DNA of 64,000 bases from Yuukianura sp. NJ FZ-2021 (Eukaryota): contig CM102288.1 in NCBI GenBank assembly GCA_046563655.1, positions 1,798,001 through 1,862,000 of the forward strand. The letters are read 5' to 3'. How positions within the stretch are numbered: position 1 is the stretch's first letter; the number at the start of each line of letters is the position of its first letter. Below, piece after piece: positions 1 to 53,979 of the stretch. The translations under genes and the position numbers were made by a program. The notes beneath the pieces were generated by a model. It saw only the letters and a program-made list of their open reading frames with translations, did no database searches and had not been told where the DNA came from.

Positions 1-2934
1 TGTTAACTCGCCAGTTAATCATAATCATTTTTCTTACTTCCTCCGTCATATTTCCATACAAAAGCCATTCCAGTCTAACTTTCTGAAGAAACTCTTTCAA
101 AAACTTTGTCAGATCTTCCAGAGTGACACCTAGGAGGAAACGAATTTGCAATCACAATCCAATATTTTAGGTTACAAGACAAACCTTTGAGAGCTTCAAG
201 CATTTCTTCATGAGTCCAACGCTTCTCCCTCAGCAAATAACCCAAATACCAATTGGCATGTTTGCTTGGTTGTTCTTTTCTCCAGTTACTCAGTGCCCTT
301 GAGTATGCCTCCTTCATAACAACAAATCTTTCTGGGTCACAACAATAAGTGACCAAGCGTTCAACAACTTTCTGGAGTAGGACTCCCAGCTTGTGATCAT
401 AACCGGCAACATAAATCTACACAAACCAAAAAATATTACAATCAAACCAAATTATTAACCACCGATAGTAAAAGATAAAAACAGGAAGAAAAAAATCAGA
501 AATTGACAGATTACGTACCTCTAATCCATAAACAGATTCCAACAAATGGTATTTGAGTCCTGATACACTTGCGTTGTAGGTAACTTCAGTAAGCGAATCC
601 TCCACTAATCGTTTCAACAGTCCAACCAAAGTTTGATTCAATGGAGACATCTTTGGAAGTGGACTGCAAATGATAAAATTTTTGACGTTGATACAAAAAC
701 CGTATCCAGTAAAATTTTACCTTGAGATCTCCACTCGAACAACAGCCTTTGGTAAAAGGAATTCATTATCTTGCAAAAAGAAAGCTCGGCTCAATGGACC
801 ATTCGATATTTTTCGTGGAATAATTCCCTAGAAGTAAAAAAAATTACTTAATCTTAATTACTTAATTACTCGTATTAATTCATGAATTGAATTGGTAACT
901 CAAAAATATGGAACAAAAATTACCGTATTATCTCTTGGTTTCAATTCAAAAACGGATGGAATAAATTCGTTCTTTAGTGGAAGGTGTAGCTCTGCATTTA
1001 GACCACAGTTTTTCCACTTCTGAATCAGTTCAGCGTCAATTTTTTCCACAGCATACTGGATTCCGTAGTATTGTTCCACTTGATCCGCCTTAGACTCATT
1101 TTCCTTCGCAAAAACGGTGATCCTGCCAAAATCAAATGGGCAATTTGATCACTATTTTAACCTCAAACTCTAACATTACTCATCACATTAGAATTAAAAA
1201 CAAAAAACTGATCAATACCTGCACTTTTCTGGAACTAAATTCGTCATTAGCATTACAATTTCCTCAGGATTGTATTCCGTTATGAGGTAGTCCGCGCTCA
1301 GTACATCCTCCAATGGATACGACTAATTAAACAATTGAAATACAGTATAGAGCAACACATAAAGTGAAAGGAATCAGATGAGTTTCTTACAAGCATTTTT
1401 GGAGTCAGATCACATACTGTGTCTTCTGGACACTTTTGATCCAGAAATCTGAAATTCATGGCTTCCACATCACGAAGTTCTTCCCAAACCCATTGCTGTG
1501 GTCCACTTTGACGAATCATTTCTAAATACTGAATGAAATAAAAAAATTTTATTAACCATATTGCAAGCAACATGGAAGTTAAAGTGATTCAAAGAGGAGT
1601 ATTAATTTAATTTGAGATTTACCTGAAATAGAATTTCGGCAATTTCATCAACATGTTGAAGTCCGCTTTTCGATAGCTCCATTTCGATTGAAGCCATTCC
1701 GAATCCGCGGGCTTCCGTGGCAATATCCGCTGAAAGTTCGTTGACCCAGCCTTTCTTTTTCAAAAGTGACAGCAGTGACCCCGAACTTTCATGGCCCAGC
1801 AAGTGAGTGAGATAGTGAGTCGACTGTAAAACATTCAGATTAACTTATAATCTTCTCAGGAGAGTGAAACGTTGATAAACTTACCCCTGCTTTGTATCTG
1901 TCGGTGGTATCCGGAAACGGAAAGACGACACTCATCTGGCGAAGGTCTTTGACTGGAACGACGTAGACCTTTATTCCAACATGGTCAGCATCAAATGGAC
2001 TCTCAGGCCAGACTTCCATCTCAGCATCCGAGTTTTTGACAAGCGAGAAAAGTGGAGTCGCCATGTTTTCCAGTTCATCCAGACTTTCTCGGCCCAACAC
2101 AGCCAACGCCATTATGTTGGACGAGTAGAACTTCGCATGATATTCTTTCAACGCTGCAATAATGTCGATCCCATTTGCCTTCGGGTTGGTCCACAGAGTT
2201 TCCAAGTTTCCAGTCCCGAACTTGGAGTAACTATGACGTGGGTTAGAAGTACATTGCTGAATTGCGTTTGATCGCCAGTCATCGTCCGTGATGTTTTTGT
2301 CGTGTTCGGATGCAACCGCTTGTATTTCTCGCTCCGTCGAATTTTCATTGAACAAAGGACTGATGAAAAATTGAGCGAACCTTGAAAGACAGTGATAAGG
2401 TTAGAACCTGCTACAAAGTTTCTTGAAAGTGGCAAGGATTAGAAAGCGGCATTACCGATCTAAACTCGCGACGAGCTTATCAGGAGAGATGTCGAAGTGA
2501 TAGTTCGTATGGTCATGTTCCGTGAAAGCATTCGAGCCGCCGCCGTGGTCACTGAGGAACTTATCGAACTCATTCTCGACAGGATACTTTTCAGTTCCGA
2601 GAAAGCACATGTGCTCTGCAAAGTGGAATAAACCTGGAAGCTCTTCCGGATCCGACATACTCCCTGTGCAAAGAAAAAAGATAGACAGAATGCCTGCTGG
2701 TGTTTTAATAAGATAATAAGGATTATGGTTACCTCCTCCCACAGTAATTGACGCTGCTGCCTTCTCAGCTTTCGAATCACTTATGAGCATCACCTTGAGC
2801 TTGTTATCTAAAACGTATGCTCGATAAAGGCGGTGATCGGAGGCTGACTTTGTCACAATGATTTCTTCCTTCATTTTCTTCTGCTGCAACTGCAGGCTAG
2901 ACACACCAGGAGCAGTGCCAGCATCCATCCCCAT
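1..2934 (-). CDS. IDE: Insulin-degrading enzyme (peptidase M16A), multi-exon, 3' end runs off the window; first in-frame AUG at 2934
   Basis: Exons encode LDNKLKVMLISD..KAAASI, GSMSDPEELPGLFHFAEHMCFLGTEKYP (inverted HxxEH zinc motif), GGGSNAFT, KFGTGNLETL, FYSSNIMALAVLG and LGHESSGSLLSLLKKKGW; GT-AG introns throughout. Confidence 0.95.
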
Positions 2935-3771
2935 AATTCCGACTCCGAGTGATTTCTAGAAATCAAAATCAAGAAAGTGTCATAAAAATATTGAATGACC
3001 CACCTTGCCCTGGGATAGGTGTGTCATATATTCATTGACCAAGAAATTGTGATGGCAATGCTCCAAACTTACCCCCTTTAGTACACTTGACAACTGGCGA
3101 ACCGGTAACTGTGATGGTAACCTGGAACTGGAAATTACCCGGGACGAAAAGTAGCGAAGACAACCTACCCGAAGTGCGTAAACAAATTTTGCCAGCGCAA
3201 ACAGTGACCACTTCCAACGTCGTATGTTTTGTTGAGCCTCCTCAGTATAACAGTACAAAAGACAACTAGCTGATGACGACAGCAAGTCTAATTATTAATC
3301 GGAGACCGGATTTGTTTGTGCAGTAGTCCAGTGTCCGGCCGAGGGCGAGGGCCGACAACTTTAAATTTTTCGCTTATCTACCGCAAACTCGCGAAGGGTT
3401 CTATGGGAGAGATAGGAAATTGCACTTTCACCCAGAGCACCAGATGTGGGCATCCCAGTTCTCCCTATCTCATACATGGGGGCACAATTTAGTTAAAGTT
3501 AGGTTAGGTTAAGTTAGGGTAGTGACCGCCCAAAACTAATTACAGATTCGTAATCAGCGTAAAAAACTGAGTTAATTGAGATTTTTATCTCAATTAAACG
3601 AGCTTCGCGAGTTTTCGGCAGGAGTTCCAAATTTTTTGACACCAACAGCAGCTGATGGGGGGGAGGGGGAGGGTGCAAAACAGGTGGAAGAAAAAAAGAA
3701 GATCATTTTCGCATTTCGCGGGCTTCAAAGAATTAGCATTTTCACTAACATTCTTTATCAGCTTCCTTTAT

Positions 3772-5699
3772 TTAGAAAAAGTTTTTAAAAAATCGTATTA
3801 CTAAATGAACCCACAGTGGAACACGACGATCACTCTGCATCCACACCGATTCCTCAAAAGGATTGGAATGCGCATAGAGTCGTTCCTGTTCCGATTCTAA
3901 AGCTAGCCGCAAGGACTCATTCTTGGACACAATGAACAGTTGTGTTTCCAAATCACGGTATACAGAGCGATATCCTGTTTAAAAACAATTTCAATTAAAA
4001 TTGTGATTGAATAGTGCCAATTTTCTGTAATGATACCAAAGTTCGGTGAACCAATGAGCGTTACAAATGGTAACTGTTCTCCCGGTGGGTAAAACCAAAG
4101 TCCTTTTCCATGAAATGTCCACCCTTGTCTAAAATACTCTTTCATTTCTATTCGTTGATCTTGCGAAGCAGCGACAGCCTCCCGCCAAAATCGTTTAGCT
4201 AAAAGCGTATAAGCAGCTGGAATCCCTCCAGCAGGAAACTTTGCTCCGAAAAAACCATTTGCCTAAAAACGACAAGAAAACGTTGGAATTTGAAATGTTT
4301 GTTAAGATATTCTCACCTTCGGATGGGCCATCAGGATTTGAAACTGTGCTGCGGGATTGGAAATAATAGCGTCGATGTAGTCGGGTGTAAGATTGAAGTA
4401 TCCTGTGGCAAGTTTGACTCTGGAATTCGGTGACAATTGATTGAAAACATGCAGCGTAGCTGCTGTATCGTTGAAGATTCCAAATGGGCCCATTTGAATT
4501 AAAGGAAAGATCCATGTGTCTGAATCCGATTCTGAAGTGGCATGATTTTCAGTTAAACAGACACGATGTCGTGAATTGCTGCTTTCAATACAACGGTCGT
4601 AGTAGCCCATAATGTGATGTTTCGCAGCAGCGATGAATTTTTTGGAATCTCCGGTTACAGGATCTAATGTCCAATTGGGGTGGAGATGGATGTTATTCTT
4701 TGAATCCAGTCGAAAAGAAAACTCTGACACGCCAGAGATGAGACCATCATAAAAATCAGCTAACTCCTCGCAATCGTCAATGATAATGTACCGATCTTGC
4801 CGATTTGTAAAGTAGTCATTTGATAAATTAGCACTACAGAAGAGTCAGAATTAGGCTAGGTCACGCAAATTAATTTAGAAAAAAAAACAGTTGCGTTACC
4901 CGGATATCATGACAGAGTTGTCGAAAATGTAAACTTTCATGTGCTGAAGTCCCACTAATTCATTCCACCGCTGCGGCAGTATTTTCTTCCGAGCTCCTCG
5001 AAGCGTCGGAGTATGATATAGAAAAACATTACACGAAGGATATTGCAACAAGGGTTCTAGCATTGTCCTTGAACTGACTTTTCCTCGTGTTCCCCGAGCA
5101 TAATCCAGAAGTATTGTCACTTTCAGATTGGTCACGTTCTCTAACCGCTGCCTTAAGGTCGACACCTAAACGTTCAGAATTAAGAAATTTACGTAATTCG
5201 AAAATTATTTAAGTTCAAGTTCAATTACCAGCTCCTGTTCCATAGTTCCCGTTCCAAGGTACAACGAAGCCAGTGTGATTCGTCGTGTGGCCGTTTTCGA
5301 CTTTTCAATCAACGTTTTGTAGTACTCATCTGGTGTTAAAAGTACCCTGACATTTGAGCCCTTAGTTACATAACCCGGTGCGTAGTCAGCCAACCACCGC
5401 CATGACTCCAGGTTTCCATCCAGTAATTTTTCAGTATCTTTATGTTCATCCCATCGTTTGGTCCTTGACTTTAAATTCCGGAGACTTGGTGGATCGTTTC
5501 CATCAACTTGTACCTCGACTTGTGAGAATTGAGTAGTGCCTGTGGAATTTGTATTAGTGACATTTGGTGAAGGAACATTGAATGGCCGCTGATACCCGGT
5601 TCCCGTTGCAGAGGCATTACTGGAAAATGATCTCAGTGACCTGACCTTGACCACCACGTTCTGTAGTTGAAACTTACGGAGAGCAGCAATACACTGCAT
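3772..5699 (-). CDS. PGS1: Mitochondrial CDP-diacylglycerol--glycerol-3-phosphate 3-phosphatidyltransferase (PLD superfamily), multi-exon
   Basis: Motifs RRITLASLYLGTG, ILLDYARGTRG, LYHTP, RWNELVGLQHMKVYIFDNSVMISG, LATGYFN, GWTFHGKGLW and TLIGSPNFGYRS; C-terminus DRRVPLWVHLVIRFFKNFF*; basic N-terminus resembling a presequence. Confidence 0.95.
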
Positions 5700-9430: not shown

Positions 9431-12400
9431 ATGGCTACTATTGTTCTTTACGTTTTCGTATTTTGTATTTTGGCGCCTGGAGAAGTAGTTGAAGGAGTGT
9501 CGACCAATCACATCATCCTGATCACGCAGCCTACCCAATCACAGGATTCATGGTTTGCCTACTCCCATTTATTCCTTCCAGCTGCGGAATTTTCTACGCC
9601 ATCGTAAGTAAAATTACGTCAAAAAAAATATGAAAACAAAAAGTTTTTTTTTTTTCAAAATTTTCTAGGATTGTTGTGAGTGCTCCCAATGGAAATCAGT
9701 ATGAACACAACGAAATTAGGCCTGGAGTGGTCTGGAAGTGTTTCCTCGGACCAAAATCAGCCAACGAAACATGTCAACAGCTAGCCCTTCCAGGACCCCA
9801 AGTATTACCAGGTAAGTTTTTCAAAATTCAAAATTTTGAAATTCAAAAACTGAAATTTAAAAAAAAATTCTGAATTTACCACTAGATGATCCATGTTACG
9901 AAAAACAGTGCGAGTGGAACGACAACGGCTTGCTTGGAATGACGCTTGCCAGCGATGGACGACATCGCTGGTTGGCTTGTGCTCCAAAATGGCAACGAAC
10001 CCTTATAGGCGTTAACCCAAGGCTAAATGGGTTGTGTCACTTTACCAGCGACGTGGAACCGTCAAAACGAGTTGCGCCTTTGACCGATCCAAGTCTCCAA
10101 CTTATCAACCGATTTCCAGTTTACTCGTGGGCACAAGCTGGCTTTTCAGCGACATTCGATGGACCGCAACTCGTCCTTGGAGCGCCAGGATTCAACGGCT
10201 GGAATGGTAAATTTCTCTCAACTGAAAATCTGCCAGGAATTTTCAAAAACGAAAAAAAAAAACGAAATTTCAAAAAAGTTACCTTTTCAAAATTTCAGGA
10301 ACAGTGATACAGTATGGACCGGATGCTGCTGGAAAAGATACTTTCCATGTCTTGGATTTGAAAATTCTCCAGCACATGTTTCAAATTGAGTATCTCGGCT
10401 ACGCTGTAACGAACGGACGATATTTTGAAGATGGCGTATCGCTGATCGCTGCTGGAGCTCCGCGTGGCTCTGGTCTTCGTGGACTCGTTTTTGTGTTTGA
10501 GTTTCCAGGCACTGATGATGATGACATTTGGTTACCAGAGACAAGCATGGAAGGAGACACTCTCGGAGGCTACTTTGGATCTGTCATGGCTTCAGGCGAT
10601 GTCAACGGAGATGGCACTGATGAACTCATTGTAGGAGCTCCACTTCGGCCTAGAATTGACGCCTCCGGTGACATTTTTGCCGCCGGAACTTCCGGGTTTA
10701 AAACGGGAACGGGAGAGGAAGGATGCATTTTCGTCTTCACAAGCAAAGAAGTACTGTAAACTTTCATAATTTTAAGTTTTAAAAAGTATTACAAATTGTT
10801 GATGAAAAGTGATTTTTTTTTGTGATATAAGGTTGCAAGAGCATTTGGAAAACCAGAGATCATTTGCGGATCACGATACAGAGGAGCTCGATTTGGACAA
10901 GCAATAGCCGTCCTTGGAGATATCAACGATGATGGATTCCAAGGTTCAAAATTTTTGAAAATTGTGAAAGTTTTGTAAAATTTTTACGTTTTTTTTTCTA
11001 AGATTTGGGTATTGGAGCGCCGTTTGAAGACGACGAGGGAGCGTTGTACATTTACCATGGAGAGGCTAATTTTGGACTAAATCGGAACTTAAATCCAAGA
11101 CTGGCGTCTCAAACGATTCGACCTTCAGCGGATGCTGGATTGGTCCTTAAGGGCTTCGGATCGTCTGTTTTCGGCGGAGTAGATTTGGATAGCAATGGAA
11201 CTCCAGGTTTTAAGCAAAAATTCAAAAAAAAAATTCAAATTTTATAAAAATTTGATAGTGTGTAATTTGCATTAGATATTGGAATTGGAGCGTTCAAGTC
11301 AGAAGCATTGATGATTCTTAGAACACGTAAAAACTTACCAGTGGAAAACACGATTCAATTGATCGTCAATGGATCAATTGTGAACGCCTTGGAAGAAGGA
11401 ACTAGTGAATTCGTTTGTAAAATTTGTACAACAATTGGACTCGGAGAGGACATCCAAGCGTTGAAAACAGAGCTGGGTAAAACAAAAAAAATCAATGAGG
11501 TGCTAAATTGAAAAAAAAACTGTAAATTTTTTTGAATTTTGTTACTTCAAGGTTATTATCAAGTCGACGTAGAAGTGACCTTTGACCCGAATCGCAAACG
11601 TTACGAAGTGATGGGCGCTCTTCTGAAGGACAATATTTACTCGTATCGAATCTCCGACTATGGAACGATTCTGATACTGGCTCTTCGCATGGACCTCAAC
11701 CATACCGAACCACTCTGTACTGTTTGGAACATTCAGAAAAAATTGCTTGACGAGGTGCACCTAAAAGAATACTTCCAAATTATTAACTTTTCAAAATTTT
11801 GATGATTTCTTAACTTAGAATGATGAACCTTTTCCTGGAGATGACTTTACGGAGGTAAATCTTGCATGGGAAGCAAGTTATGCTTCGTCTGATGCTTACG
11901 ACGAGGTTGGTACTCGCAAGTATGTACTGACAGGAAACAAATTTCACGTTGACGGAGAAGGTAAGGCAAAGCAGTTTCAAATTTTGAAAAAAAAACACGA
12001 AAAAAAAAACAACGTTTTTTATTAAATAATACTCAGATTTTGATGCCTTCTGTGCCTTGTGTCCCGAAGACACGCCGAGTAAAGGAGTTTTGACGTTTCC
12101 TATCAACCCGTCGTGTCACGATTCTTGTCAAGCAAACTTTGACCTCCAAATTTCGTTTCAACATCAAAACACGCCAAATGACAGCAAAAGGTTGAACAAC
12201 TCACAAAATCATTCAGCTAACAAGTTAAAAAAATTAACTAAGGTAGTGCCTTGATTTATAATTTCAGTTGGAATGTTGGATCTACACCGCTGGAACTTGT
12301 TCTAAAAATTATAAATTTTGGACAAATCGCTGGAACTCCAACGGTTGAAGTTAGGTGGATACCACATTCACTTTCGTTTTCACACTTTGAGCCTTTCTGT

Positions 12401-14002
12401 ACACTAAACTCAACGGCTGGAAAAACTATTCAGTGTTCCACTGGTGCTCTGTCTAGAAAACAATCCGTAAGTTCACAATATTTTACGTCATGAATCATCA
12501 TGACTCATGATTCATGAAAAGTTTCAGCATTTCGAGTCATGATTCATGAATCATGATTCATGTAAGCTTTGTGTCAAATGTCAAAGTCAAACTGAATTTT
12601 CATTTAGGAATCAATTCGGTTGACCCTGGAACCATTTTACCCCAGAGCCAAGGTCACGCTGCTTCAAATCTCCGCTGTTCTTTCCACCCCAAGTCAAAAC
12701 GTTTCAGAGGAATCTGAAAACGTAAAATTTTCAGACGGGCCTGAAACGGCTGAAATTTCACTCATTTCTGAAGCAGCCTTGGGGTACTTCAAGGCCTCTA
12801 CGAACACTATATTCCTCAATGGACGCCAATCAAAATCAGAATTTAGACAAACATTCAAAGTAAGAAAAAATTTCAAAAATTTCTCTTTTTCTTTATCTCA
12901 AAGATAAATCGAAACGTCAGCGATTCAGCAGCGTAGTCGCTGAAATGAAAAAATTGAGTTGACTATGAGCCAAGTCGTGCTTAAAAACACTTTGATTAAT
13001 TCCAGATGCAACTTTCGGGTGCCAGCGGAGCAGAAGTGGACTACAGCTTCTGGTTTCCAGCGTCTTTTCGGAATCACATTCTCACCAGTCTCTATCCACC
13101 AATTGTAAATTAACATTTCGAAATTTCAAAAAATTCTAAAATTCTAAAACTGACTTTTGACCTTTGACTTTTTTGTAGGGCAAAGGATGTGAGGTCAAGA
13201 ACCATGGACATGTACTTCCATATGAAGAGAGTACCGATGCAGAAGCGATGCCCAACGTAGTGACCTGCTCTACCCCAGAGGTCACGTGTCTCAAGGTCAA
13301 TTGTTTCGGCAGACGACTTAATGCTGGCAAATTAGATGAATTCACATTTCGATTTTCGTTGGACAGTCGGACTATTCGTAAAAATTTACAATTTCTGTCT
13401 AAAGTTAAATGAGAAGTTCAAAATTATTCCATTTTTTAAAATTTTAGGAAAGTTGATGAACGAAAGTAAAGCTGGATTTTTCGAGATTCAGTCCAAAGCG
13501 GAGATGACGATGTTCGGAGTTGTGCATGAAGCTGTGGCGACAACGACATTTCAAGATCCAGAATCCGCAGTGTTGGTTGCCGGGTACAGAAGAATCCCGC
13601 GATTCCGTTTTTGGATTCTACATTTCATTGCGGGTGTCGTGTGTGGAGTTGCAGCAGTCGCTGTAGTGACTTACGTTCTCAAGAAGGTACGATCATCTTA
13701 ACTTTTAATTATACTAATTAAGTTTTATGAAAATGTAAATTTTGAATTTCTAGAAAGGATTCTTCGAACGGAAGCACAAAAAGAAATTGAAACTGTTGAA
13801 AGATCAAATTGCAGAGAGAGATTGGCATTACTCTCCGCTGTACCATGGTTCCAGACCAGGATCGGACGATGAAAGTGAACCGCTGAAAGCCGATCCGGTC
13901 ATACCCGAGCCCAAGAAAGTCGGAATTCAGCTCGTCGCTAAAGAAAAACCGCCAATACACACCCACATTCGAATTTTGAGTTACGAGGAATCACAAAAGT
14001 AA
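9431..14002 (+). CDS. Integrin alpha subunit, multi-exon
   Basis: Signal peptide MATIVLYVFVFCILAPG; FG-GAP repeats ([85 protein letters not shown]); TM segment followed by KKGFFER (GFFKR-like). Confidence 0.92.
12488..12562. repeat. Palindromic TCATGA-based microsatellite in an integrin intron
   Basis: tcatgaatcatcatgactcatgattcatg...gagtcatgattcatgaatcatgattcatg; a short related tract lies at ~22467-22485. Confidence 0.7.
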
Positions 14003-14217: not shown

Positions 14218-16843
14218 TTATTCAAATTCTTCATCTAGCCTTTCAAGGGAATTGCCTATTTCAGAAGAAGCTGAAGAGGGGGGAAAGTAGGTTGTGGGTG
14301 TCGCTGGGCGATTAAGGCGCCGAATCGGAGTTCCCTGGAAGAATTCAATTGCTTCGGCTCGAGCCAAGGGGGCCCTTAGAGCCTGATACCTTCTGGCCAT
14401 AAGATAGGACTCCCTCGTTTGACATGCGCAGTCCCTCACAAACTGCATCGGCACAAGCATTGAACTCACAGGGGGGCCCTTGACTTCTGGTGGTGGTACA
14501 TCGGCATGTTCCGGTTTTCTATAAAGGGCGACTTGAAGGCTCCCTCTGGGCACTGAGGGGATGTCAGAGGCCCTTCGACTTAAAAATTTTCGTTGTTGAT
14601 TCAGTTGAAGAGTGGGGAGGGGCGGAGGTGATGAGGGGGCGGGGGCTGAAGGGGGTGGAGTTATTGTATCTTCATATACTGGATGTGCTGGAGGGATGCT
14701 GGATGTGCTGGGTGGATCCACCACCCACCCGGCAGGGGGGTGTTGACGTTTTGTACTTTCAGGGGGTGGCGGAGTTTGTCTCAAGGGTTTGTGAATTACC
14801 GTGTCACGACTTTCAGTTGACGACTGCTCTTCAATTGTTGAGTGGAGACTTGGGCGGGACGATGGTGGGGCAGCATTTTGGTGGTTGTGCTGGTGGTGGA
14901 TCAGTTCGGACGGACAGTTGCTTTTTTGGCTCTGCACTTCCGACCCCATTTCGGACTCTCTTGATTTCCTATGCAGAGCCCTCAGAGCCTGCAGTTCTTG
15001 ACGATCTTGTTTCAGTTTTCTAAAAATGTTCAAAAACATTCCAGTGCACATTCCTACTACAAGCAGAGCTCCCATGAAAGCTATAATGAAAATATCAGCT
15101 TTGAGTCCACCGGGTTTGAGGTCGGGACAATTCTCTTCGTCCACTTTGAGTTGACAATTGGATCGATTGTTACATTTGAGTTCAAGCGGAATACAAGTAT
15201 CATCGGAACAGTTGAATTCATCGTCGTTACATTGCGTAACATTGGCCGGACGAGTCCGAATTATGGTATAGTTGGCTCTAAACTGACTCAGTTTCTTCAT
15301 CTCTGAGTCGTCTAGTGTCTTTGCTCCGACTTTTGTCATGAGTCGAATGGCAATGACATGGTCCTCTGATTTGGTCACTTCTTTCAACTGACTTCCACAG
15401 AATCGGTCAATGGGCTTGTTTGTATTTCCAGCGAGTTTGGCAAAAGAGTCATAGACTTCTAGGAAGTTGTAGTGGCAATCGTTAGGTTGTTCGAGTGAGT
15501 AGTAGTAAATTCGGAGCAGGATTTGACGGTCCACTGGAGCCTGGATGACCCAAGTACAGTCAATTGCATCGCCCTTCAGCCTGGCATAGTTCAGGTAGTC
15601 CTTGGATATTTCATCTTTGCTTTCAATGTCACCCTAAAGTGAAAAAAATAATGTTAGGTCAAGCAATGTTCCCAGTTTCAGTCAAATTTCGGTCGTCCGT
15701 CCGAAATTCACATTTGGATTTCTCGGACCGACACTTTTTTAGTCGACGGTTCCATGCCATTGGTTCAACTAAATTGGTTCAAAACAAAATAGTTCACAAA
15801 ATTGCTTTACATTCAACCCAATCTTGTTGAACTATTTAAGGTCTTGAACTAATTTAATTTTGAACTAAATGGCGTACGTGAAATGGCGGAAACTTTTATT
15901 AACATTTGTAGGAAGTGCAGCAAATTTGAAAATGTTGGGGGCGTGGCTAAGGTTCGTTTACGTATTTTGGAAGGATATTTCGGTATTTTCACTCGTTTCG
16001 GACATTTCTAGACCAAAATTTGAAAAAGTGGCCGAAACTGGGAATTCCGGTTAGTGAGATGTGTCTTTTTTTAAACTCTTACTTGAACTTGGTCAATTTC
16101 GAATAGACATGTCTTGTTAATCTCCGGTTTGGGTTCAGTGTCCGGAAGGAACTTAATTGCTGCTCGGAATCCTCTGTGGTTGACGGTAGAATCCGAATGG
16201 AATCGAAGCCACAAGTATCGTCCAGTACTTTTTGTCAAGGTCGGTGGTTGTTTTCCACATGTTTTGCCTTGTACTGGCGAGTAACCGAATTTTCCTATTC
16301 GAATTTCTAGGTAATCGTAAGGACAGTTCGTACTTCCATCCAGTGGAGCTTCAATATGGAAAAAATCGTGAAACTGTCAAAAAAAAAATGAAAAACGCAT
16401 ATTTAGTCAAAATCATGAAATACGACAACTTTGAAATGATTTCAAAATTTTAAGAATTTTACCTGTACATGGACAACTTGGCCTTCCGGTGCTTCGATAA
16501 TTTTGATACAATCGATATTATTTGGATAGTTTTTGGGATAATTTGGACTTGTAAATTCATACATTGAACTTCCGTTGGTAAATGCTGCACATTCTATACT
16601 GGAGTTGAACATTAGTTGACTAGGATGAAGAACAGAGACGTTAACTTTTTGTGCTCCTTCCAGAAGATGAGAAGTACTCGGTGGCTGTGCTAATGCTTTT
16701 GGTCCACCAATTTCAACTTGTCCAGTAGTACTGGAATTCCCCGGAGCTGGACTTCCATAGGTCAAATGACTTGCATCTAGAATCTTCCCTGCTAAAAACA
16801 CCAGTAGCCGGAACAGGAGCCACCGGCATTCCAGCCCCACCAT
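14218..16843 (-). CDS. Neto: Neuropilin-and-tolloid-like receptor (signal peptide, CUB, CUB, LDLa, TM, Pro-rich tail); exons ~16843-16463, ~16373-16083, ~15633-14218
   Basis: CUB1 FTSPNYPKNYPNNIDC..CPYDYLEIRIGKFGYSP..TGRYLWLRFHSD; CUB2 DCTWVIQAP..CHYNFLEVYD; LDLa CNDDEFNCSDDTCIPLELKCNNRSNC..DEENC; TM IFIIAFMGALLVVGMCTGMFL. Confidence 0.85.
15669..16044. mobile_element. Degenerate MITE-like insertion in a Neto intron
   Basis: Terminal inverted repeats ttcccagtttcagtca / tggccgaaactgggaa, with additional inverted subterminal similarity; no ORF. Confidence 0.5.
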
Positions 16844-18137: not shown

Positions 18138-20133
18138 ATGGGTATCCTGGACAAAATCGCTGAGATTGAGCGAGAAATTGCAAGGACGCAGAAGAATAAG
18201 GGTAACTTAAATTCCGAACAGATTAGTTTTAGAAATGTCAAAAAATGTTCCTTGAACGTTCACAGATTCGGCTTCCTTAAGATCATTATTGGGAGAAGGG
18301 AAAAATGGAAAAGAATTTTTTTTTTTAAATTGAAAATTCAATAATGTTTTTATTTTTAGCTACGGAATATCATTTGGGCCTTCTGAAAGCCAAGTTAGCG
18401 AAGTACAGATCGCAGTTGTTGGAGCCAACGAAAAAGTCAGGTTCGTTCGAGATATGATTTTAAAACGGTGAATTTCAAGTTTCTTATTTAGCAGAATTAA
18501 ATTTTAACCTTACTTGGTATTTTTAGGTGAAAAGGGCGAAGGGTTTGATGTTTTGAAGAGCGGAGATGCCAGAGTAGCTCTAATTGGATTTCCATCTGTG
18601 GGAAAGGTATTACAATTAAGAACCGATTTTTTAGAATAACTGCAAGTGCAAGAGAACACTTTGTTTATGGTTCATTTTTATTTTAGTCCACCCTGCTGAG
18701 CACAGTGACGAAAACGGAAAGTGAATGTGCTTCTTATGAATTCACAACTTTGACATGCAGTAAGTAACTTTACAAATAAATCCATCACCGTCAGCCTTTC
18801 CATCTTTACTCAATGATTATTTGTTTCAGTTCCCGGAGTAATTGAATACAAGGGTGCTAACATTCAGCTACTGGATCTGCCCGGAATCATTGAAGGCGCT
18901 GCTCAAGGAAAAGGTGGGGTTCATCTACCCAATTACCTTCCGTTATGAATCGTTAATATTTTCTGTTTTTTAGGAAGAGGAAGGCAAGTTATTGCTGTAG
19001 CTCGTACTGCTGATGTCGTCCTGATGATGTTAGATGCAACGAAGGGTGAAAAGCAACGGGAGTTGCTCGAAGCTGAGTTGGAATCTGTAGGGATTCGACT
19101 CAACAAAAAGAAGCCCAATATTTACTTCAAAGTGAGTGGTGTAACGACGTTTTAACTTCGTCGTTAAACAGTTGTAAAACATACTGTTTTTTTTTATGCC
19201 AGATCAAGAAAGCTGGCGGAATTTCGTTCAACTCAACGTGTAATTTGACCCGAGTTGATGAGAAGCTTGTTCAACTGATCCTACACGAATACAAAATATT
19301 TAATGCCGAAGTTCTTTTCCGGGAGGATCTTGGAGCAGACGAATTGATTGACGGTATTAGAACTACTTTCAGTTGAACTTGTCTTATGATGATTTGAGTA
19401 ACTATTTCATATTTTTTTCAGTGATAAACGATAACCGGATGTACATGCCCTGTCTCTACGTGTATAATAAGATTGATCAGGTTTGTTCCTGCTCAAAAAC
19501 TTCTCAGTGCTAAGAAAATCAAAATTTTGTGTTCTTTTGACACAGATTTCAATTGAAGAAGTGGACAGACTAGCAAGACAGCCAAATTCCGTTGTAGTCA
19601 GGTAAGTCAGTTACACTTTAACAATTTCAAACTGTGCGTGTTTTCAGTTTTTTTTTTTAACTTTTGTGTTTTATTTGTAGCTGTAACATGAAACTGAACT
19701 TGGACTATTTACTGGCAACGCTTTGGGAATACCTCGCCTTGATTCGAGTGTACACCAAAAGGCCCGGACAACCTCCAGATTTTTCAGATCCGATTATTCT
19801 TAGGAAAGGTGTAACTGTAGAACACGTTTGTCACTCCATTCACAGAACAATTGCTTCCCACTTCAAATATGCTCTGGTTTGGGTAAGCCGCATACCACTA
19901 ACCACTACTTCTGAGTTTGATATTTGTTGTGTCAACTTCATTTATTTCTGTTTTCAGGGTACAAGCACAAAATATTCTCCGCAGAGGGTTGGAATTTCAC
20001 ATGTTATGAATGATGGTAAGACCTTGATCGATTGTCAATTCAAATATTTTGTGTAAGTTGTTGCGAATTTATAATCATTTCATATTGTTTGTGTTTAATT
20101 TCAGAGGATGTCATTCGAATCGTCAAGAAATAA
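18138..20133 (+). CDS. DRG2: Developmentally regulated GTP-binding protein 2, multi-exon
   Basis: [39 protein letters not shown]-loop [43 protein letters not shown] domain [27 protein letters not shown]; ends IRIVKK*. Confidence 0.97.
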
Positions 20134-33365: not shown

Positions 33366-33522
33366 TTGGCTGGAGTCTAGTTTTGTAGTCTGTTTTTCTT
33401 TCAGTCCATGAGTTAGGTTATCAAATCAGGAAGTGCACGACGCACTGTGCACCTTCAACACCTAACCTAACCTAACTTAGGGACTAAAAGAAAAACAGAC
33501 TACAAAACTAGACTCCAACCAA
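33366..33522. mobile_element. MITE-like element with ~42-bp terminal inverted repeats and internal TTAGG/CCTAA tracts
   Basis: ttggctggagtctagttttgtagtctgtttttctttcagtcc pairs with ggactaaaagaaaaacagactacaaaactagactccaaccaa (2 mismatches). Confidence 0.75.
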
Positions 33523-38165: not shown

Positions 38166-38930
38166 TTACCACGGTCTCCACGGTGCCTTGTCCATGTCAC
38201 GGTCACCGTGCTGAAATGTGCTGTAGTTGTAAATGATTGATTCTTGTGGTGACGATGGTGGCGTGTACGGTCGGTAGCCAGAATCAACGGATCCAGAAGG
38301 TGACACACTGGAGTGCTGAATTGTCATGGCGGATGGTGATGATGGTGACGATGGTGATCGGTTGCCACAAGATGACATTTGGTTCAATGCAGTTCCAAGG
38401 TGAATCATCATGGAAGTGCCCACTTGAATGTCAATTGCTGGTGATTGGGCTGCCAGTGCTCGTGATACTTCTTGAGCACATTTTTCATATCCAGCTCTGA
38501 ACCGTTCGTCGTCTCCGATTGGTCGAGAGGCTTTGGCTTGTGCTTCCAGCTCGGCAGCATTTTGTTGTGACTGGAGTTTATGGAGATGTCGGACAGTGAG
38601 TTCCAAAATGTCGGCTTTTTCTAGTCTGGCGACATTTTCACCTTCCGCTTGTAGCCCGTTGATCAAAATGTCTTTGAGTTCATCCAGGCAGCGATTGATT
38701 CGAGCACGACGTTGTCGCTCTAGTAAAGGTTTGGTGACCTACAAACAAAAAAATTGCGACACTTAGACATTTTGTACTAAAATTTTTAGTTGAACTGTCC
38801 CTTTGGTATCTGAGTATGAAATTTTGAAATTTTTTGAAAAATTTACCTTTCTGTACTGCATTGTTCGTGAAATTGGTTCCGGACTTTGCTGCTGTCCGAA
38901 AGCTCTGGAGATATCGGTCAATGGAGCCAT
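38166..38930 (-). CDS. E(spl): Enhancer of split bHLH-Orange-WRPW repressor (bHLH2-like), 218 aa; exons 38930-38847 and 38738-38166
   Basis: [48 protein letters not shown]; Orange domain RFRAGYEKCAQEVSR; terminal WRPW*. Confidence 0.95.
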
Positions 38931-43090: not shown

Positions 43091-46000
43091 CTGCACTTGA
43101 CAAAGTCACTGCAGCTACCACGGTGCTTGCACACGCAGAACCGCTTTCAAAATGATACGCACAGACCATGCACCCTTGACACTCAAGGGACGCCTTAATT
43201 TAATTCACTCCACTCGACATAGCCTATTTTTTGTTTGTTCAAAATCCAACATGCTGCTGGGTTCAATTTTTCAAAAATTCAATTCCAATGATGCATTTCG
43301 GTCATCAATTGATTCTGATCCTGCCACACTTCCAGTCCATAAATTTTTTTTCAGAATTTTGGAAATTTGAGTGACTACCTTAACAGTTGCCCTGAACCCA
43401 CAAGTAGGATTCAGCAGACGAACATGAGAAAATTTTTCCTTATAGTTTCATAATTTTTTTCCAGAATTGATGAAAACGAAAACCATGAGATTCCAATTGA
43501 TTTTCGAAATTTCGAAAGGACGACAATCAAATTCTGAAATTGTTTGAAAAAAGGCGAATCCAAGTTTGGAAATTTTTGAAAAGCGACTCGAATTTGGAAA
43601 TTTTTGAAAGAGGCGACTCAAATTTCGTAGCCATAACTTGGTTAAGCGCTTGTTAGAACTGTGAAGGAACGGAAATTACAAACACTTTAAGAACAGAATC
43701 GATTTGAACCGCGCCGCCGTGTTAGCTTGCCTCCTTGAAACGATTTGAAATGTATCAGAAAATGGGCTTCTTCTGGATTGTGTCTCAAAGAAAAGATTTT
43801 GTTAGATTGCAAAATAGGATAAGGCTGTTCCATTGTTGTGCTCGGCCAAGGGCCCCCCTCCGCCAGCCCCCCACTTCTTTAGTCCGTGGCCAAACTTTTG
43901 GCCACTTGTTGGCCGTGGAGGGTCTCAGGAACAATAGGGGGCCCTTCGACCCCAAAATTCCTCAAGTTTCCACTCATGTTTAGGTTAGGTACTTCCTAAG
44001 GGCCTCGACGCTAAGGCTCTTCAATTACTCAACCCCCTAACCTAAGTGTACTTCTTTTCACTTACTCAAACGAAGGGCCCTTTACACGTGTCCTCAAATA
44101 AGTTGACACTTTGACTCTCAAAATTTTCAAAATTCGAGGCAAACAAAGAGAGAAATGAAAAGGAGGCCAACTTCCGCCTCTTTCTGCCACAGCAGACTGC
44201 CTTTTCAGGTCAAAGGTCACGCCGCCCTTAAAGTCCTCCCCCAAGGGGTCACTTTGGCCTACCACAAAAAAAATGAGTTTCAAAACTAAACTTTTCTTTG
44301 CTTGTCACTTTTGAAATTCTTACAGCAAAATTTTGAAATTTCTGATTATTTTCAAAAATTTTGATTCCGGTTAAAAAATTTATGATTTGAACTACCGAAG
44401 TTTTGCCGTTTTAATTAGTTAATGCTTTGCGAGCTTCGGAGTTATAAGATCCTGTTATGAAAATTCATAAAAAGTTTCGTTCAAAAACCTAAAATTTTGA
44501 AAAAGTCTAGCTTTTCTTTTTGAAAATGTTGTTCAAACAGAAGTGTTTTGAATGTGTATCGTGTTTGGGACAGTTTGGAAGTGATTATTAAGGTATTTGG
44601 TTGTTAGCTTGCTGCTTAAGGTCAAAGGGCCCCCTTCCCTGCTCCTCTTCCCGGTAGGTTTAGTTAGGCTAACGTTAGGTTTGTTAGGCTAAGGCTAGGT
44701 TGCTTAGGCTAAGGTTAGGTTGATGGTCTCTTAATTTCAGTCTTCTTGCTGGATAACATTGTTCATTGTGCCCAGTGAGTGAAGGAATAAGCTGTGAAGG
44801 TAATTGTTATTGGAGGAACAATTACTCGTCTCTTTCAGTAAATACTCAGATTGAATGTCTAAGCCTTAGCCTTAAGGGAGAGCTTAAGGGCCTCCATGTA
44901 CCCTTACAATCTTCCCGCGTCTTTTCTTATGGACCAACCTTGTTTAAAAATCATTTTAAACTCGGAGAACGCACAGAACAGAGCACATTATTGTGTCCAG
45001 GGCCTTCGTTTTCTATTCAAAGTCCCTTAGAAATCCACTCCATGTCAAAGGCAATTGAAGGGACCTCGTTTCTCTTTTCAAAGGGGCCACTTTTTCAAAA
45101 TTTTATTTTATTCATCATTACATACAAACCAAAAATTTGAAAAGAAACTGAGAAAAACGTTTCTTGAAAGCCAAGAAGTGTAGCAAAGGCTGTACTTTCT
45201 TTGTCCTCTCTTTTACGGCATCTTCGGTTAGGTTAAGTGAAGATGATGGGGACCCTTAAGGGAGCCTGGAAAATGGACCCTTTACTGACGCTATCCGCCC
45301 ACTTCCTCCTTCCAGGACAAAAAAGTTTTACAACAGTTCAAAACCAAATTTTGAAATTTTCTTTTTAGAAAATGAGCTTTCGTCCACTGAAGCGTAAATT
45401 TGAAGAAATAAGCGTATCTAATTCTCTAATCTGCCCCATTTCTTATAGTCAGCAGCACGGCCGTTTTCTCATGCTTAAAATGAAAAAAAAGTTGAAAAAA
45501 AGTTTGGAATTGAATGAGTTTTTGTGAACAATGAAATCACGACACCACCACCGAAAAGAAAAAACAGCCTTAAAATACGCCCAAACTTAACAATGAAGGA
45601 CTTGATAAAATTGGTTTTCATAATTTTTCACAAATAAAATTTCAAAAAAAAAAACGAACTTCGGTTTTAGCCAAAAATCAAAAAAAGCTGGCGGGGTTAC
45701 GCTTGACCTCAGTTGACCTTTGACCTCTTCCGCTAAATTGCTGAATTCCATAGTACTTGAACAGTAACTAGAATTGGATTTTATTGTAATTATGGGTTTG
45801 TAAAATTTCAAAATTTTGGCATATAATTTATTGCCGTTTCAAAAAAAAAATTATTTCGTGAAAAATTTCATAAGTGTCGAAGACAGTTTGGAACAAATGA
45901 AACCGTTTAATTTTGACTCCTTAGTTTTTAAAAATAAAGCAAAATTTAAATTTTGAAAAAATCAATTTTGATCTTTCACAAAATGTTGCAATTTGCGTTT

Positions 46001-52960: not shown

Positions 52961-53979
52961 ATGGCATCTTCAGTTATCACTCAAGAGGAACAACCAATCT
53001 CAAGAACTTACCAATACAGAAAGGTAAACTACAAATTTCAAGTTTTCAAAAAAAAAATCCAATTTCGTTTCAAAATTTCCATTTTCGTAAAAACCACGTA
53101 GTAGAACTTACGCAATGGAACTACTATGTTTGGCTTGATTGCACAATTCCACTGAAAAAAAAACGAGAATTGACAATTTCTGAAGAAAAAATTGTGAAAG
53201 TAGAAAGAATTGGTGAAAGTCGGAGAAAATACAGAGAGTTTTTTTTTGTGAAAACAAAAATACCGGGTTTTCTTTTCTACTTTTTCGGACTTTCTGTTTT
53301 CGTTTCTTTTTTTTCTAAATTTTGAACTTTTTTTTGACTTTAGGTTATGAAACCTATGTTGGAGCGGAAGCGTCGTGCTCGAATCAACCGATGTCTGGAC
53401 GAACTGAAAGAGTTGCTCGTCGGTGCACTTCAAGCCGAAGGTGAAAGTGTTTCCCGCTTAGAGAAAGCAGACGTTCTGGAGCTCACTGTGCGCCATCTAC
53501 ACAAACTACGCAGGTCACATCAACTTTCAGAAAATGTCGCCGCAGATCGATTCCGAGCCGGATTTTCACACTGTGCCAATGAAGTAGCCAAGTACGTGTC
53601 AACAGTTCCCTCTGCCATGGACGTCACAATCTCCGCTAGACTGCTGAACCACCTCGATGGCTGTCTTCGTCCCACCAATCAAGTTCAAGTAGTTGACCCA
53701 CCAAATGGTGGCTTCAGTCCCACCCAAAATCATGGTCCGCACCCACAACGCTCATCGCCACGCCTTGTCATCACGAACTACAACACGCCACCGTCGTCAC
53801 CCCAAGGTTCGTCCGTTATGTCACCAGTTGGGTACAACAAACCGAGTCCTGCGCATGCTCAAGCAGCTTTCTGGCCAATGACCTACGCCCATCCAAAACA
53901 CGAGGTCAATGACCTTGAGATGATGCACAGCGAAGAGCCGTTTGACCTCTCCAGCGGATCTGTCTGGCGACCATGGTGA
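52961..53979 (+). CDS. E(spl): Enhancer of split bHLH-Orange-WRPW repressor (m-beta/bHLH1-like), 232 aa; exons 52961-53023 and 53344-53979
   Basis: [51 protein letters not shown]; Orange domain [17 protein letters not shown]; terminal VWRPW*; K-box core TGTGAT at 54518-54523. Confidence 0.96.

Follow-up and report, generated by a model that had tools for sequence, protein, structure and literature searches.

A presequence-like leader without an AUG upstream of an IDE-type gene of Yuukianura sp., possibly translated from a near-cognate codon

In mammalian IDE, initiation at Met1 gives the mitochondrial form and initiation at Met42 the predominant form (Leissring et al. 2004, via PMC7830943), and the passage of PMC7830943 that deals with the two starts ascribes the better context to the second AUG. 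Yeast Ste23, an IDE homologue, is described in the relevant section of PMC5391191 as having a cleavable N-terminal presequence and as taking part in the degradation of presequence peptides in the matrix. Mitochondrial N-terminal extensions started from non-AUG codons are documented in the yeast MT-NTE screen, where AUA was taken as a usable codon, according to the part of that work cited here (PMC6582344). The efficient near-cognate codons named in the cited part of PMC5666671 are CUG, GUG, ACG and AUU, a list from which AUA is absent although it can initiate with Met-tRNAi in vitro. For Drosophila, the excerpted text of PMC4528330 gives 27 genes annotated with non-AUG starts in FlyBase, 11 of them CUG, and describes the y1 allele, an AUG>CUG change, as null. 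Both ingredients of the arrangement considered below, an IDE with two starts and mitochondrial extensions with non-AUG starts, are known already; our literature search found no report of a non-AUG IDE isoform, the titles and abstracts that it covered being free of the term ‘non-AUG’.

The window analysed is a stretch of 64,000 nucleotides from Yuukianura sp. NJ FZ-2021 (assembly GCA_046563655.1, contig CM102288.1, positions 1,798,001 to 1,862,000 of the forward strand), and all coordinates count from its first letter. An M16A peptidase gene occupies 1-3300 on the minus strand with its 5′ three quarters; it exits the window at base 1 with its 3′ quarter outside, and its domains were followed up to M16_C. 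Stop-to-stop frames of the gene match Pfam Peptidase_M16 (PF00675) with E = 6.6e-21 and Peptidase_M16_C (PF05193) with E = 7.8e-14. A search of 5.8 billion proteins yielded 1259 candidates for this gene, 102 of which match at E ≤ 1e-10, and the best named relatives are all IDE (ostracod, 55% identity; copepod, 50%). When four orthologues were placed by tblastn, their residues from ~4-55 to ~666-725 fell between 2952 and 156. Judged from its sequence, the gene is an IDE-type M16A peptidase, and the identification as IDE made in the initial annotation is borne out by the Pfam M16 domains, the HFAEH motif and the named best matches, with the choice of nearest family (IDE as against nardilysin, PreP or MPP) following those named matches rather than a tree. 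The features at the 5′ end of the gene are as follows.

2611-2625, minus strand: HFAEH zinc-binding motif (HxxEH) in exon 3, from translation and Pfam
2733-2955, minus strand: exon 2, opening with seven leader codons (2955-2935) and continuing from ATG 2934 as the N-terminal part of the cytosolic form, from translation and tblastn with IDE orthologues
2956-3072, minus strand: putative 117-nt phase-0 intron, GTAAGT...TTTCTAG, from splice signals read from the sequence
3036-3452, minus strand: stretch free of ATG in all frames, from an ATG scan
3073-3291, minus strand: 73 open codons of the putative upstream exon, in frame with ATG 2934, from stop-free translation
3193-3195, minus strand: in-frame CTG, alternative near-cognate start, with G at -3, G at +4 and 0/4 in MAAM scoring
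3223-3225, minus strand: ATA, proposed start, preceded by CAAAAC, context AAAC-ATA-C, from sequence and MAAM scoring
3292-3294, minus strand: in-frame TAA closing the leader frame at its upstream end, from translation

The first ATG of the IDE gene is at 2934-2932 on the minus strand. Upstream of it, the 3′ end of the putative leader exon reads ...CTA AAG GGG at 3073, followed by gtaagt, and the acceptor reads ...gattttgatttctag, with AAA beginning at 2955 in phase 0. Donor and acceptor resemble those of the gene's ten other introns that were read, and 117 nt is within their length range; within the putative intron, ATG occurs at three positions (3035, 3027, 2983), and TAG 2958-2956 is in frame. 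The initial annotation had joined 3073 to 2955 in phase 0, in frame with AUG 2934, and all coordinates of this predicted junction check; its translation of the 58 residues read from the ATA is identical to ours, and the stretch that it called Arg/Ser/Leu-rich and acid-free counts 7 R, 4 K, 10 S, 9 L and 0 D/E. It was also right that no ATG lies between 3300 and 3073, and the ATG-free run is in fact wider, the nearest minus-strand ATGs being at 3453 and then 3035: from 3452 to 3036 that strand is free of ATG in every frame, so that no in-frame AUG precedes AUG 2934 in that span. This 418-nt gap ranks third longest on the minus strand of the window. In shuffles of 3452-3073, P(0 ATG) is 0.012, and for the open exon part alone it is an unremarkable 0.23. 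No Pfam family was matched by the open frame of the leader exon.

Two further splicing features were observed. A second phase-0 donor-like site, CGG/gtaatt, is found inside the leader exon at 3138 (minus strand), and its splicing to 2955 would give a shorter in-frame extension of 29+7 (36) residues. Intron 2 of the gene (2664-2732, minus strand) is only 69 nt long and open in frame, the frame 2452-2955 being stop-free across it, and its retention would add 23 residues directly before the exon with the zinc motif.

The space upstream of the leader is bounded by a second gene on the same strand, with the following features.

3361-3477, minus strand: acidic ATG-started ORF of 38 codons, with ATG 3477, a second ATG at 3453 and TAA at 3363-3361, from translation
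3767-3774, minus strand: PGS1 stop TAA (3774-3772), overlapped by AATAAA, from sequence
3775-5699, minus strand: PGS1, mitochondrial phosphatidylglycerophosphate synthase, with an AUG-started presequence (ATG 5699), from a homologue search

The best named matches of PGS1 are springtails and Artemia, at 47-50% identity, which marks the host as a pancrustacean that lacks near relatives in the databases. Since its stop and AATAAA lie at 3774-3767, ~480 nt remain between PGS1 and the leader frame for the promoter and first exon of IDE. The 38-codon ORF shares the frame of the leader and would be a uORF only with a transcription start upstream of 3477. PGS1 and IDE, each with a role in mitochondria, form a close tandem. 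A short interstitial array of the TTAGG type ((TTAGG)x5, 85% matches, 3498-3522, plus strand) lies ~275 nt upstream of the ATA, in what is presumably the promoter of IDE, the pentamer being that of arthropod telomeres; a 13-mer of the repeat has 4 matches in the window versus 0.06 expected, including 33463-33475 (minus strand) and 45223-45235 (plus strand). The array and three upstream ATGs are flanked by a 19-nt inverted repeat (3378-3396/3603-3621, 89% complementary, arms 206 nt apart), which could mark the termini of a small inserted element or form a palindrome in the promoter. An Rfam scan of the whole window found 0 families and no SL RNA. Elsewhere the window holds two hairy/E(spl)-type genes (38169-38738, minus strand, and 53344-53976, plus strand; HLH and Hairy_orange by Pfam, frames ending in WRPW), an integrin-alpha-like gene with an FG-GAP repeat (Pfam; 9861-12900, plus strand), a CUB and LDL-receptor-A protein with a long Pro-rich tail (Pfam; 14221-15633, minus strand) and a TGS-domain frame (Pfam; 19661-20053, plus strand) that is DRG-GTPase-like by eye.

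Over the first 40 residues, the composition of the leader is close to that of AUG-started presequences. Counts of K+R/D+E/S+T are 8/0/7 for the leader, 6/0/7 for the AUG-started presequence of neighbouring PGS1, 5/1/10 for Plectus IDE, 6/0/5 for Biomphalaria IDE and 8/2/7 for Oryzias IDE; the window protein read from AUG 2934 has 6/4/6. The pattern R-x-[FYL]/[SA], which we take to be the MPP ‘R-3’ type cleavage motif, matches twice in the leader, at residues 24 and 43. Its hydrophobic moment has no discriminating power, as 33.6% of 912 null open windows reach it. A signal-peptide reading was set aside by eye, each hydrophobic run being broken by Lys or Arg.

The position of the leader is that at which fish, snail and nematode IDEs have an AUG-started presequence before a second Met. 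After the 6 of 102 IDE matches without an initial M had been set aside, in 26 of the remaining 96 an internal Met is preceded by 20-70 residues that are basic and poor in acidic side chains, that Met being required to lie 50-90 residues upstream of HxxEH; 24 of these are ray-finned fish entries, and the other two come from Plectus sambesii, a nematode, and Biomphalaria pfeifferi, a snail. Neither of the two named arthropod orthologues (ostracod Notodromas, copepod Lepeophtheirus) has a presequence. A metagenome scan with IDE exon 4 gave 431 matching stretches and 318 relatives, and 80 loci were kept, mostly bacterial, fungal or protist-like intronless genes; the best identity to exon 4 is 57%, in a partial match (L045, query residues 1-97), and a tblastn re-run on these loci gave ≤50.8% identity over matches longer than 100 residues. 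Some fungus-like loci among them share the layout of a presequence followed by a second Met. Searches with the leader itself found little: a word-indexed protein search with the 103-aa open frame gave no candidate relative at ‘near’ lengths, and tblastn of the leader peptide against the 80 metagenome loci gave 7 matches, all with E 4.3-8.2. Searching 1.84 billion representatives with the 73-aa frame by phmmer returned two matches (P0223, P0224), which were ruled out as spurious, both being translated tandem repeats that align in 12 and 16 weak stretches.

How often such a stretch arises by chance was estimated in two ways. With its clearly coding portions set aside, the window yields 99,953 null windows of 58 codons, of which 6,406 are open. 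D/E are absent from 300 of the open ones, and K/R number 11 or more in 54 of these 300, at 6 distinct loci, which makes the full combination 5.4e-4 of all 99,953. In 20,000 shuffles of 3225-3073 that keep the dinucleotide composition of the exon, an open frame arises in 13.1%, a frame both open and acid-free in 5.5%, and one with at least 9 K/R besides in 0.81%. Part of the leader's signal is therefore a matter of composition. Frame 2 of the leader exon is likewise open, over its last 56 codons.

Codon use was scored with a model trained on 2,714 codons from the coding frames of the window, with the PGS1 presequence left out. The total score of the 51 codons from the ATA is -0.16 per codon; none of 43 coding chunks is as low (minimum -0.082), and the value is typical of 374 other open frames, partly because of the amino-acid composition of the leader. 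On a synonymous-only score, which has weak power over 51 codons, the leader has -0.063, compared with 0.035 +/- 0.048 for coding chunks and -0.032 +/- 0.047 for other open frames, and so lies ~2 sd below coding chunks and inside the non-coding range. The AUG-started PGS1 presequence, as a control, has a synonymous-only score of +0.034. By our own estimate, codon use gives a likelihood of ~6:1 against the leader being coding; little codon bias might also be seen in a weakly translated minor isoform.

Given the predicted 3073/2955 splice, near-cognate codons are present upstream of the AUG with no stop between. Besides ATA 3225 and CTG 3195, the in-frame near-cognates include TTG 3285, CTG 3282, TTG 3258, AAG 3213 and CTG 3204, with more further down, and six in-frame near-cognate codons other than ATA 3225 fall within 90 nt. 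ATA 3225 immediately follows the frame's last acidic residues (...TEEAQQN), and the acid-free part begins there. Contexts were scored against the Drosophila start consensus MAAM, as given in the cited portion of PMC6655844 (citing Cavener 1987). The ATA scores 4/4 and is the only in-frame near-cognate with the full score, the consensus being that of Drosophila and possibly different here; any 4-mer matches 4/4 at a frequency of 0.044. Of the two ATGs confirmed in the window, that of IDE (2934) scores 2/4 and that of PGS1 (5699) 1/4, so that MAAM cannot be taken as the consensus of the host species. The ‘ideal arthropod context’ that the ATA had been credited with therefore stands as a full Drosophila match but not as an arthropod-wide rule, its basis being Drosophila only and the window's own ATGs departing from it. 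No stabilising hairpin was found after the ATA: the downstream sequence has an MFE of -20.1, with shuffles at -25.7 +/- 3.5 (z = +1.61), and a fold as stable or more stable was obtained in 195 of 200 shuffles.

We consider it probable that the leader is, or very recently was, presequence-coding, on account of its composition, its position relative to the orthologues' presequences and its start-like context. That it is translated from a near-cognate codon, with AUA 3225 as first choice and CUG 3195 as second, is our tentative reading, possible on the sequence rather than established. In the course of events we infer, the upstream exon would be transcribed and spliced so that, together with the first 21 nt of exon 2, it would encode a mitochondrial presequence in frame with IDE, corresponding to the stretch from Met1 to Met42 in the mammalian enzyme. 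If the TSS lies downstream of 3453, as presumed, the leader would contain no AUG, and most scanning ribosomes would for that reason traverse it and initiate at AUG 2934, with the cytosolic enzyme as product. A small fraction might start at a near-cognate in the leader, most likely AUA 3225 because of its context and its place at the head of the acid-free stretch, with CUG 3195 as the main alternative. This minor start would yield a precursor with ~48-58 additional basic, acid-free residues, which could then be imported into mitochondria and cleaved.

A leader that is not translated at all, either a basic 5′UTR exon that happens to be open or a relic in which ATG has become ATA, would leave only the cytosolic enzyme, and this we hold to be somewhat doubtful. 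Its codon use is like that of non-coding open frames, 13% of own-composition shuffles are open and 5.5% open and acid-free, and a second exon frame is open over 56 codons; the full combination is nevertheless rare, both window-wide (5.4e-4) and given the composition (0.8%), and it coincides with the position of the orthologues' presequence. ATG depletion is equally expected of any 5′UTR and so speaks for an untranslated leader too, but the intact MAAM at the ATA, which fits a present or very recent start site, tells against it. Loss of the presequence appears to be tolerated in the group, given that both named arthropod IDEs lack one, and a change from AUG to a near-cognate can abolish function, as the y1 allele does in the account of PMC4528330. 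A relic, however, would have to be very young to hold 58 codons free of stops and frameshifts, and it is on this ground that a near-cognate start in use seems more probable than a relic, a weighing that draws on general rates and not on measurement. It is improbable, in our view, that codon 3225-3223 is ATG in the true genome or in the common allele, with the ATA due to an error of assembly or base calling or to start loss in the allele of the sequenced individual; the gene would then have the usual layout with two AUGs, as in vertebrates, a snail and a nematode. ATA is one transition from ATG, it has the full context at the head of the presequence-like stretch, and a reading of M-R-R-W-K-W... 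would look like other IDE presequences; yet a single-base error or rare allele would need to strike precisely that codon, which has a low prior and favours the near-cognate start, and the site bears no sign of low quality (no N, no homopolymer).

The exon structure and the TSS are themselves predictions, and a different gene model could apply in any of four forms, which even taken jointly we regard as unlikely: an AUG supplied by an exon further upstream, a TSS within or downstream of the leader exon, use of the phase-0 donor CGG/gtaatt at 3138 with a 36-residue extension, or a trans-splice site at the 2955 acceptor with the DNA upstream absent from the mRNA. SL trans-splicing occurs in some crustaceans. 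The end of PGS1 on the same strand ~480 nt upstream is compatible with co-transcription, and the second donor-like site at 3138 is a further point in favour of another model. The strong GTAAGT donor 117 nt upstream of the acceptor, in contrast, points to cis-splicing, and the window has no SL RNA or other Rfam family. An additional AUG exon was judged unlikely by eye: the PGS1 stop and AATAAA leave it only ~480 nt, the sole ATGs there (3477, 3473, 3453) open an acidic 38-codon ORF that ends at TAA 3363-3361, and the single in-frame GT...AG pairing found combines the poor donor GTAGAT with GAG as acceptor. None of the four inverted-repeat pairs detected within 2700-3760 spans 3223-3225, and editing of the AUA to AUG (A-to-I) is highly improbable.

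If the leader is translated, from AUA 3225 or another near-cognate, this arthropod would keep the mitochondrial IDE isoform of mammals and yeast with a start that is invisible to standard annotation. It would add an animal case of the AUA type to the mitochondrial proteoforms with non-AUG starts, and dual targeting of IDE would be more widely conserved than annotated proteins suggest; the interest would be greater still if the leader proved to be conserved across arthropods. If the leader is a relic or the ATA an error, what remains is an ordinary IDE gene with a 5′UTR intron. A bolder version, which we think improbable, is that the AUG-less presequence is both functional and old, mitochondrial IDE being made in this lineage (pancrustacean, perhaps arthropods more widely) only through near-cognate initiation of the AUA type. 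In that event an ancient dual-targeting switch would have been kept while its start drifted from AUG to a very weak near-cognate, lowering the mitochondrial share, and the cytosol-only annotations of arthropod IDEs such as those of the ostracod and the copepod would be an artefact of AUG-only gene calling.

Among the systems described, the MT-NTE proteoforms of yeast share with this locus an in-frame near-cognate upstream of the AUG, the absence of a stop between the two and the character of a presequence, whereas the leader described here is a prediction from sequence; within the non-AUG class, AUA is a rarely documented start. Ste23 is likewise an IDE homologue with a presequence that is dispensable for catalysis, and it supplies a likely role for a mitochondrial form, the clearing of cleaved presequences, but its presequence is part of an annotated, AUG-started ORF and involves no non-AUG start. 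The closest parallel in layout is mammalian IDE, a member of the same enzyme family in which a basic, acid-poor extension of ~40-60 residues precedes the main Met and in which, as would be the case here, a minor upstream start yields the mitochondrial form. Unlike in mammals, the upstream start here would be non-AUG, and a putative intron splits the extension from the main Met, 21 nt upstream of it. The balance between the two starts would also be set differently: in mammals the downstream AUG has the better context, whereas here the better context, by a Drosophila-type consensus, is that of the ATA (4/4 versus 2/4 MAAM), and it is the codon itself that is weaker.
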